From an uncultured Candidatus Binatia bacterium (GTDB taxonomy: Bacteria; Desulfobacterota; Binatia; UBA9968; CAXXLF01), in NCBI GenBank assembly GCA_965218425.1, contig OZ244621.1:1984001-2048000 (forward strand): 64,000 nucleotides of DNA. Direction: 5' to 3'. The position numbers were made by a program, and so were the translations under genes. Position 1 is the stretch's first letter; every line of letters starts with the position of its first letter. Positions 347 to 7,351 of the stretch are shown here, one piece after another. The notes under the pieces were generated by a model, which ran no database searches, was not told the DNA's origin, and was given only the letters and a program-made list of their open reading frames with translations.

Positions 347-589
347 CTTGAATACTCCCTTTTTCATGGTGGAGGACTTTGCCAAGGCACCAATACCATC
401 TGGGAATGGGTTGTCAAGAAAGCTCTTTAATATGTGAGAATGCGACTTATCGACCTTTGAATATCTCACTTAGGACGGTAAGTTATTGATGAATTTGGCC
501 CTAGTGATGTATGGGCCTTGTCGTGGCGACAGTCCCGGGGTAAATTGAAAGTTGTCAAGGCCATCTCAATCGTCACCAGGAGGAGACGT

Positions 590-1222
590 ATGGACAACTC
601 GGCACGTTCGAAGAGTCGTAGATTCAGAAGCTTAGTGACCATCTCGGCAATTCTCAGTTTCGGGTTTGCTTCAACCACATTCTCCGTAGGCTACGGGGAG
701 TCCCTCTCAAATTCGCGACCGGATAGCGGGTTAACCAAGCAGGCGACCTTCTCAATGTACTGATACTGGACAGGCGAAGCCACACTGGGCAGGTTGCCCG
801 GTATCAAGAGCACAAAGATCGGACACCTGGACGGTCAAGAGGTCGTAACTGTAGAGTACGATCCGGAGCAAACCAATTTGAAGAATATGTCGGATGCGCT
901 AAAACGAGAGCGGTCCTTCGGTTCGCTCGTGGTAGAGGATGAGGAATCGGGCGTGGATGCCAGAGGTTACCTGAGACGTTCTGAGATTCAAATCAATTCC
1001 GAAAAGCCCCGATTCATAGAATCCAAGCATTCATTGCGCTCCGGGCACCCCGAACTGTATCGGCTCGACCTAAGCGAGGATCAAAAGCGGATTCTCAATA
1101 GCTGGAGTTATTTTGGCGGGCCAATGCCTGATGTATTGACAGATCAACAAAAACGGATGTTGGCCGAACAGGAAGAGGAATCCATGCCATCGCGGTTTCT
1201 GAGATGGCTGCGAGGTCAATGA
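590..1222 (+). CDS. MsrA-like selenoprotein with N-terminal signal peptide (Sec at codon 58, TGA 761-763)
   Basis: ORFs 518-763 and 794-1222 are in the same frame and separated by one TGA. Read-through gives ATFSMY-U-YWTGEATLGRLPGIKSTKIG...EVVTVEYDP, which aligns with Msr[13 protein letters not shown]...[10 protein letters not shown]...[18 protein letters not shown] precedes ATG 590. Confidence 0.8.
784..802 (+). promoter_or_regulatory. Putative bacterial SECIS hairpin
   Basis: ACTGGGCA-GGT-TGCCCGGT stem-loop with a G-initiated apical loop 28 nt after the TGA. Confidence 0.65.
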
Positions 1223-6721: not shown

Positions 6722-7351
6722 CTAGCCGTGGCTCTCCCCCCAGAGTTCCTTGAGACGCCGGTCGCGGCCGCAGGAATAACGGTAAATGGCGTACCGGATA
6801 GGATTTTTCTCGTAATAGTCTTGGTGATAATCCTCGGCGGGGTAAAACTCCGTTACGGCGGTAATCTCGGTCACAATGGGCTGGGAAAATCGACCGGACT
6901 CCTCAAGCGCGTTCTTGGACTCTTCGGCCAGCCGTTTCTGTTTCTCGTTGTGATAAAAAATCCCGGTACGGTACTGGCTTCCCGAGTCGCAAAACTGCCT
7001 GTTGGGTGTGAGGGGATCGACGTTGCGCCAGAAAACCTTTAGCAAATCCTGATAGCTAAGTTCTTTCGGATCGTAGATGATTTCCACCGCCTCCGTATGA
7101 CCCGTGCCTCCAGAGGAGACTTGTCGATAGGTGGGGTTTTTTAGCTGACCACCCGTGTATCCCGAGGTGGTGGATTTGACACCCTTCAGCTCGTCGAAGG
7201 GGTGCTCCATGCACCAAAAGCAACCGCCGGCAAAGGTCGCTTTGGCCAATCCCTCAGTACTGGACGTCTGTTTGGACTCGCTTTTCGCCGGTCCGGTCAT
7301 CCCGAAGATGAGCAGTGCATTTATGAGGATCAGTCCATATAAAGTAGGCAT
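6722..7351 (-). CDS. msrA: Peptide-methionine (S)-S-oxide reductase MsrA with signal peptide
   Basis: [35 protein letters not shown]. Confidence 0.95.

Follow-up and report, generated by a model that had tools for sequence, protein, structure and literature searches.

A mis-annotated selenoprotein gene in a Candidatus Binatia genome encodes a stand-alone, leader-bearing MsrA-like protein

The window analysed here, a stretch of 64,000 nucleotides from the genome of an uncultured Candidatus Binatia bacterium, carries near its start a gene (positions 590-1222) that a plain ORF caller breaks into an 81-residue upstream piece and a 142-residue piece starting at TTG 794. Read as one frame, it contains a single internal TGA (761-763, residue U58) and encodes no Cys residue, in agreement with a preliminary description of this DNA, which had noted both a 210-aa ORF split by one in-frame TGA and the lack of Cys. 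The features of the gene, and the canonical MsrA used as a comparator, are as follows.

578-585, plus strand: Shine-Dalgarno-like AGGAGGAG, 4 nt before the ATG (from the sequence)
590-1222, plus strand: whole gene, 210 residues with Sec at 58 and a TGA stop (1220-1222), recognised by homology on either side of the internal TGA
590-700, plus strand: signal-like leader with a basic N-region and a hydrophobic stretch at residues 15-25 (hydropathy; probable export)
737-1039, plus strand: MsrA-like catalytic domain (about residues 50-150), without the Tyr47 loop and with little left of the second loop of the active site (model and alignments)
761-763, plus strand: in-frame TGA, Sec58, at the MsrA catalytic Cys/Sec column (homologue alignments, hhalign)
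784-802, plus strand: SECIS-like hairpin with an 8-bp stem and a GGT loop at 792-794, 28 nt after the TGA (folding, family comparison, published criteria)
794-1222, plus strand: 142-residue downstream fragment with a TTG start, an annotation artefact of gene callers (ORF calls and database relatives such as P0003)
839-841, plus strand: Glu84, the invariant counterpart of Glu55, which is the catalytic acid in C. oremlandii MsrA (profile alignments)
914-916, plus strand: Ser109, aligned with MsrA Tyr90; Cys in most two-domain NF041383-like proteins (profile alignments)
1019-1030, plus strand: E144-S-K-H147, at the place of the pocket motif H137-Q-K-Y140 in C. oremlandii-type MsrAs (profile alignments)
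1040-1165, plus strand: helical domain, a homologue of the one that ends C. oremlandii MsrA, with invariant Q165 and N170 (model and alignments)
6722-7351, minus strand: canonical MsrA of the same window, comparator only (TIGR00401 219.8 bits, PF01625 230.8 bits)

A strong ribosome-binding site lies ahead of the ATG, and a consensus scan of positions 300-1500 for promoters and terminators found none. The signal-like N-terminus of the earlier description corresponds to a hydrophobic leader with an 11-residue Kyte-Doolittle peak of 2.06; on this hydropathy the product is probably exported, as had been proposed. A hydrophobic leader was found, again by hydropathy, in 85 of 87 stand-alone sequences tested. 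At the other end (window 1166-1219), the C-terminal tail is first acidic and then basic, with a Trp, and is seen in Binatia-type TGA forms. As for a sequencing error at the TGA, against which the claim was to be checked, contigs from three of four runs (X2, X4 and X5, two studies; X2 and X4 may be source reads of the assembly itself) cover positions 761-763 without a single discrepancy, and the TGA recurs in homologues from other genomes; it is no sequencing error. The contig of the fourth run, X10 (RNA), is 152 nt long, covers 579-730 and ends before the TGA; it does not show transcription of the gene. Runs X10 and X11 hold small shares and we therefore claim no habitat.

The preliminary description interpreted the TGA as selenocysteine and called for homologues to be inspected at position 58. 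Among the best 120 of 247 homologues, 84 have Cys at this column, 2 have Trp and 34 lack the site; 33 of the latter are 122-148-residue pieces that start after the column, so that at least 33 database proteins attest to the splitting of the gene by gene callers that had been predicted. A further 148 representatives (150 of 402 listed) comprised 126 with Cys, 1 with Tyr and 21 off-pattern, one of which shows Trp at the column. At the DNA level, the fetched loci include 7 distinct TGA genes, 5 of them close kin, and 47 distinct genes with TGC or TGT at the column, counted after merging duplicates (window/L051/L077, L016/L052/L085, L055/L056 and L061/L069). The gene thus presents what is expected of a bacterial selenoprotein, an in-frame UGA aligned with Cys in homologues and conservation on both sides. 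An eighth TGA gene, L104, was found in a selA-bearing genome that belongs to the same phylum as an acidobacterial genome. Beyond the TGA, the reading frame is unbroken in every TGA gene but L061/L069 (second TGA) and L056 (assembly N). A TGG row at L045 proved to be a chance motif in another gene, the true L045 homologue having TGC, and P0138, a stand-alone homologue of full length that lacks Cys and carries Tyr at the catalytic column, is possibly inactive.

The genome encodes selA, selB and selD above cut-offs and a tRNA-SeC found by ARAGORN, so all four components (selA/selB/selC/selD) whose presence was to be confirmed were recovered; one of them, selD, is also interrupted by an in-frame TGA. 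The two other TGA-bearing genomes that were tested have selA. As selB is also present in 3 of the 5 Cys-form genomes tested, Sec capacity does not predict the TGA form. A genome-wide script screen left 157 TGA candidates, from which 11 other TGA genes were chosen by their motifs; each is similar to a redox or selenoprotein family with E below 1e-5, and 6 score above a curated cut-off. These in-frame-TGA genes (G000:C1, L090-L100) are GrdA-like, GrdB-like, OsmC-like (three), AhpD-like (two), deiodinase-like, Prx/Trx-like (two) and Grx-like (one, leaderless, G000:3003897-3004133). The genome has a rich selenoproteome. One of these genes, L099 (G000:C1:3706857-3707465, minus strand), encodes a leader-bearing thioredoxin-fold, peroxiredoxin-like protein with its TGA in a UxxC motif. 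These data bear on the alternative that TGA 761-763 is a true stop, making the gene a nonsense pseudogene, or is read as Trp. In its favour could be counted three database proteins with Trp at the column (P0036, P0048 and P0135, known as protein entries; one more has Tyr) and the one TGA lineage (L061, L069) with a second in-frame TGA. Against this, the TGA hits one invariant Cys column in several lineages with the downstream frame open and conserved, the Sec machinery is complete and each of the 11 further genes split by a TGA in this genome resembles a known redox or selenoprotein family; moreover, since the same gene terminates at a TGA stop, TGA is not read as Trp in it. We consider this alternative highly improbable. 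The second TGA (L061:2519-2610 and L069:2519-2610) lies 29 codons past the first in two assemblies; because L104 has Arg (AGA) at this position and the hairpin that follows has no G at its loop start, it is likelier nonsense than Sec.

The hairpin with a GGT loop reported 28 nt downstream of the TGA was located at 784-802, with an energy of -11.4 kcal/mol. The bSECIS criteria given in PMC13188914 are a loop of 3-9 nt, a stem of 4-16 bp, a G in the first two loop positions, a spacing of 16-37 nt and an energy of at most -7.5, and the hairpin falls within all of them. At least 6 of its 7 core pairs form in 7/7 TGA genes versus 12/47 Cys genes, the hairpin being partly dictated by the L-G-R-x-P-G codons. 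In L058 one pair is altered on both sides by two synonymous, compensatory changes; covariation by itself is not significant (88/500 shuffles). A second small hairpin, GGC-GAA-GCC, occurs in 7/7 TGA genes versus 4/47 Cys genes and is not claimed as a SECIS, its loop lying 12 nt from the UGA with 3 pairs only. In the other TGA genes of the genome the script screen placed hairpin loops mostly 16-23 nt from the UGA, versus 28 nt here. The Cys/TGA column, the Sec machinery and the SECIS-type hairpin together support the recoding: TGA 761-763 almost certainly encodes selenocysteine, and gene 590-1222 is a real, mis-annotated selenoprotein gene whose function is predicted below.

Among protein families, the product best fits the C-terminal half of NCBIfam NF041383 (VPGUxxT thioredoxin-like (seleno)protein type 2). 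Its residues 45-190 align to positions 141-286 of the 287-position profile (E 1.6e-21), with a score of 77.3 bits that does not reach the curated cut-off of 275. The C-terminal MsrA-like domain of this family, which the family table of PMC13188914 gives as hypothetical protein OS_HP5, is present, and the shared motifs are M-x-C-[FY]-W-x-G-E, E-V-V, K-[YH]-x-L, Q-x4-N and L-[ST]-x-x-Q. In contrast to NF041383, the product has neither the thioredoxin domain nor a VPGU/VPG[UC] motif; its Sec lies in the MsrA-like domain, whereas the catalogued Sec of NF041383 is that of VPGU in the thioredoxin domain, and the second Cys at +51 of the two-domain proteins is lacking. The product corresponds to the C-terminal half of NF041383 standing alone and equipped with a leader. 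The idea of a split gene, with a separate thioredoxin half elsewhere in the genome, found no support with the NF041383 model, which matched only this gene and two MsrAs, all three on its C-terminal half. Three Thioredoxin_7 hits were noted beside this search. Pfam PF01625 (PMSR) is borderline, with 23.4 bits at full length and 24.8 when trimmed for a cut-off of 23.7, and TIGR00401 (21.4 bits, cut-off 108) is not reached. The comparator MsrA of the window has a leader-like N-terminus, and a second canonical MsrA, leaderless, is encoded about 9 kb from selA (G000:C1:1291916-1292422, minus strand).

The AlphaFold model of residues 46-192 has a pLDDT of 96.8 and adopts the MsrA fold. Its top VIA-align match is the C. 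oremlandii MsrA 4lwj (Z 13.8, rmsd 3.1, 142 of 147 residues aligned), the alignment spanning chain residues 6-202, and the top six VIA-align rows are all MsrAs. Canonical MsrAs align with Z 7-10 and end by model residue 132, and the helix-deleted entry 4w8c aligns only up to model residue 110. Foldseek gave TM scores of 0.71-0.75 to C. oremlandii MsrA, and hhalign against four C. oremlandii-type Sec-MsrAs a probability of 99.4 (E 2.8e-21, 134 columns). C. oremlandii MsrA consists of a catalytic domain (1-144) and a helical domain (145-209), the latter described as essential for activity and absent from other MsrA structures (PMC4479559, PMC4333827); this enzyme is Cys-free, requires Glu55, is recycled by glutaredoxin and dimerises via its catalytic residue (PMC4479559). 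With a C-terminal helical domain and no resolving Cys, the product has the architecture of this one-Sec type. It shares with C. oremlandii Sec-MsrA (4LWJ, 4U66) and the Sec-bearing relatives L078-L081 the fold including the extra helical domain, the Sec position, the absence of Cys and the conserved Trp and Glu. It differs by its low identity (about 13-16%), its motif Y-U-Y-W-T-G-E instead of G-U-F-W-G, a shorter helical domain and its leader, the catalytic residue of C. oremlandii MsrA being at position 16. With canonical MsrAs (PF01625, TIGR00401, including the periplasmic Neisseria PilB) it has the catalytic-domain fold in common (Z 8-10), but it lacks GCFWG, the NPTY..GHAE segment, a resolving Cys and a fused thioredoxin or MsrB. 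Two statements of the preliminary description need correction: the C-terminal half, called unrelated, is the rest of the MsrA fold plus the C. oremlandii helical domain (Foldseek, VIA-align, hhalign), and what had been termed a truncated MsrA spans the whole MsrA-type fold and has lost two loops of the active site. L078-L081 (G316, G284, G187 and G185) are Sec-MsrAs of the C. oremlandii type; they have the helical domain and a long leader at the N-terminus, and two of them contain what we take to be twin-arginine-like motifs. Exported Sec-MsrAs, to judge from these leaders, may be common in the phylum of their hosts, where 4/300 genomes passed the threshold.

The active-site residues of C. oremlandii MsrA listed in PMC4333827 were mapped onto the product through profile alignments, not coordinates. 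Cys/Sec16 corresponds to Sec58, Phe17 to Tyr59, Trp18 to Trp60 and Glu55 to Glu84; the Tyr47 loop is deleted, Gln89 is replaced by Arg108, Tyr90 by Ser109, His137 by Glu144 and Tyr140 by His147. The MsrA motif G-[CU]-F-W-G reads Y-U-Y-W-T here, with the nucleophile, an aromatic residue and the Trp kept. Glu84 provides the catalytic Glu of MsrAs (Glu55/Glu94); the oxygen-binding Tyr (47/90; 82/134) and the pocket His/Tyr (137/140) are not retained. Several earlier observations withstood comparison with the MsrA of the same window (hhalign probability 96): the TGA falls at the catalytic-Cys column and the EVVTVEYDP likeness holds as an E-x-V-x-x-x-YDP match. The alignments also bear out the deletion of the NPTY..V...TGH segment, and the loss of loops and change of pocket residues support the suggestion of an altered active site. 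Cys, Trp and Glu are invariant in 82 aligned homologues (55/55 stand-alone and 27/27 two-domain rows), and the Tyr90 column has Cys in 20/27 two-domain rows and Ser in 44/55 stand-alone rows. In the two-domain proteins this Cys is plausibly, from its position, the resolving residue for the fused thioredoxin domain; no later Cys exists in 83 of 84 stand-alone Cys homologues. As inferred from the alignments, the nucleophile, the acid and half of the methyl pocket would survive in the product, but both proton-donor Tyr and the resolving Cys would not. Tyr82 or Tyr134 is named as the proton donor of Neisseria MsrA (PMC6210582), and the loss of both may impair normal MsrA chemistry.

Such a site could also belong to an exported selenol redox carrier, or a peroxide or sulfenate scavenger, rather than to a sulfoxide reductase: deletion of the loops would expose the Sec for electron exchange with protein thiols, as the relay half of two-domain NF041383 proteins might do. 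The loss of both oxygen-binding Tyr and of the pocket His fits this proposal, as do the fusion of two-domain relatives to a thioredoxin-like domain and the Cys at the Tyr90 column in 20/27 of their rows, which suggests disulfide chemistry there. Yet the general-acid Glu and the Trp, not obviously needed for plain thiol exchange, are invariant in 82 homologues and the stand-alone forms have no second Cys, and we regard a carrier or scavenger as unlikely. We favour instead, with a probability of about 0.55, an exported one-Sec MsrA-fold reductase of a sulfoxide-type (S=O) group, with Sec58 as nucleophile and Glu84 as acid, recycled in trans. SelB would read the hairpin 784-802 and insert Sec58, and the leader would carry the protein to the periplasm. 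The Sec58 selenolate would then attack the substrate sulfur and Glu84 protonate the oxygen, with Tyr59, Trp60 and His147 holding the methyl side, leaving a selenenic acid; selenium may compensate for the weaker activation that follows the loss of both oxygen-binding Tyr. As the product has no resolving Cys, regeneration of Sec58 would depend on a second molecule, either a distinct protein with a thioredoxin or glutaredoxin fold or, if C. oremlandii MsrA is a guide, the partner subunit in a diselenide dimer. A candidate partner is the leader-bearing UxxC thioredoxin-fold selenoprotein mentioned above (G000:3706857-3707465), which could be fed by a CcdA/DsbD-type membrane protein encoded at G000:1833837-1834490. 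We count against a sulfoxide reductase that the genome already has two canonical MsrAs.

Because both oxygen-binding Tyr are gone, the substrate of the proposed reductase may not be methionine sulfoxide; given sulfoxide reduction, a different substrate has roughly even odds. An ordinary periplasmic methionine-S-sulfoxide reductase, in which other residues would replace the lost Tyr, is a sub-case of the sulfoxide reductase that we find somewhat unlikely. It would be consistent with the whole-length fold match, the conservation of U, W and E, the Tyr found at position 111 in 47/55 stand-alone rows and the precedent of periplasmic MsrA activity in PilB (PMC6210582). The product itself, however, has Gly at position 111, where Gly, Asp, Glu or Asn is found in its close relatives, so that Tyr111 is dispensable in Sec forms.

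The closest homologues are stand-alone proteins of 160-230 residues from Acidobacteriota, Myxococcota and Methylococcales, the nearest named one (L016, 76% identity) being from a Candidatus Binatia genome. In a tree of 40 rows with the trait column masked, a single TGA clade was rejected (AU p=0.008) and the TGA forms, found in two phyla, required at least 3 changes. Stand-alone forms make up one clade (support 100/98), separate from the two-domain proteins. Their distribution is patchy: the stand-alone gene was found in 1/40 relatives and 1/400 same-class genomes, in 3/401 genomes of the G693 phylum and in 0/300 same-phylum genomes, where the 4 matches were C. oremlandii-type MsrAs. The other same-class matches were three two-domain Cys forms and one more (L089). 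A broader proposal, which we think rather unlikely, is that the product represents, in selenium form, a widespread and as yet unnamed exported MsrA-fold family whose periplasmic substrate is an oxide other than that of methionine, be it an organic sulfoxide or a methylated metalloid oxide, the family having shed its thioredoxin domain, both active-site loops and the resolving Cys and undergone several Cys/Sec switches; if true, it would mean a new activity on the MsrA scaffold. L105 and L107 are two-domain relatives whose thioredoxin-like half lacks VPGC and whose MsrA-like half keeps both Cys, a possible intermediate state. The two-domain homologue L088, from another same-class genome, has stop codons in the stretch that separates its domains, consistent with a frameshift.

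PMC13188914 tabulates 119 prokaryotic selenoprotein families, treats a different Sec position as a distinct subfamily and lists MsrA (motif GUFWG/H) and NF041383 (motif VPGU); its family table (2026) contains neither a stand-alone MsrA-like domain with Y-U-Y-W nor its Sec site. Among the publications searched, none describes a stand-alone Sec form, and BSepDB may file such sequences under MsrA. As Cys-free Sec-MsrAs are already known (PMC4479559), the result is moderate rather than startling; what would be new is the Sec site and the stand-alone, putatively exported architecture within the MsrA/NF041383 kind. The Cys/Sec exchange points to this residue as the one that probably carries out catalysis in the C-terminal domain of NF041383, so far unstudied, and the link to C. 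oremlandii MsrA indicates that a helical domain called absent from other MsrA structures is common to a large hidden family. The product offers a minimal natural test of two questions: which residues an MsrA still requires when its nucleophile is selenium, and by what route an enzyme with a single Sec is regenerated outside the cytoplasm. Since the Cys homologues need no recoding for expression, the function can be tested directly.

Judged by its layout in the window, the gene is monocistronic: a substrate-binding-like gene on one side points away from it, and an amidohydrolase gene on the other runs towards it. L016, L055 and L056 have similar neighbours; L053 and L054 do not. No conserved partner or reductant gene was found across 28 loci, neighbour ORFs having been chosen by length and 83 of 106 scanned, so that shadow ORFs and short genes may hide partners. 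L039 and L040 (Methylococcales, Cys forms) have a rhodanese gene on one side and an ArsS-like radical SAM gene on the other; L039 in addition has an ArsM-like methyltransferase as a neighbour, and L040 has nearby an ORF that we take, from its motifs, to be flavoprotein disulfide-reductase-like. Such neighbours would agree with a role in metal or metalloid handling (binding, or As=O/Se=O reduction) through an exposed Sec with nearby Met, Glu and His, as would the motif M-x-U and a weak resemblance to heavy-metal-associated domains (E 0.0017 for CopZ; Z 5-6.7 across some 70 residues). This likeness is nevertheless limited to a shared small core and far below the MsrA scores, the MxCxxC site of CopZ and MerP is replaced by M-Y-U-Y-W-T with no second Cys or Sec, and the arsenic-type neighbourhood is confined to 2 of the 28 loci and absent from this window. 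We judge metal handling quite improbable beside the exported sulfoxide-type reductase. An OPT-family oligopeptide transporter adjoins the gene in eight loci (L017, L018, L026, L030, L031, L034, L038 and L041); as all eight are acidobacterial kin, we read this adjacency as inherited synteny. In L021 and L037 (Multivoradales) the homologue adjoins a 760-residue fusion of a thioredoxin-reductase-like FAD protein and a NapH-like ferredoxin membrane protein, a possible electron source.
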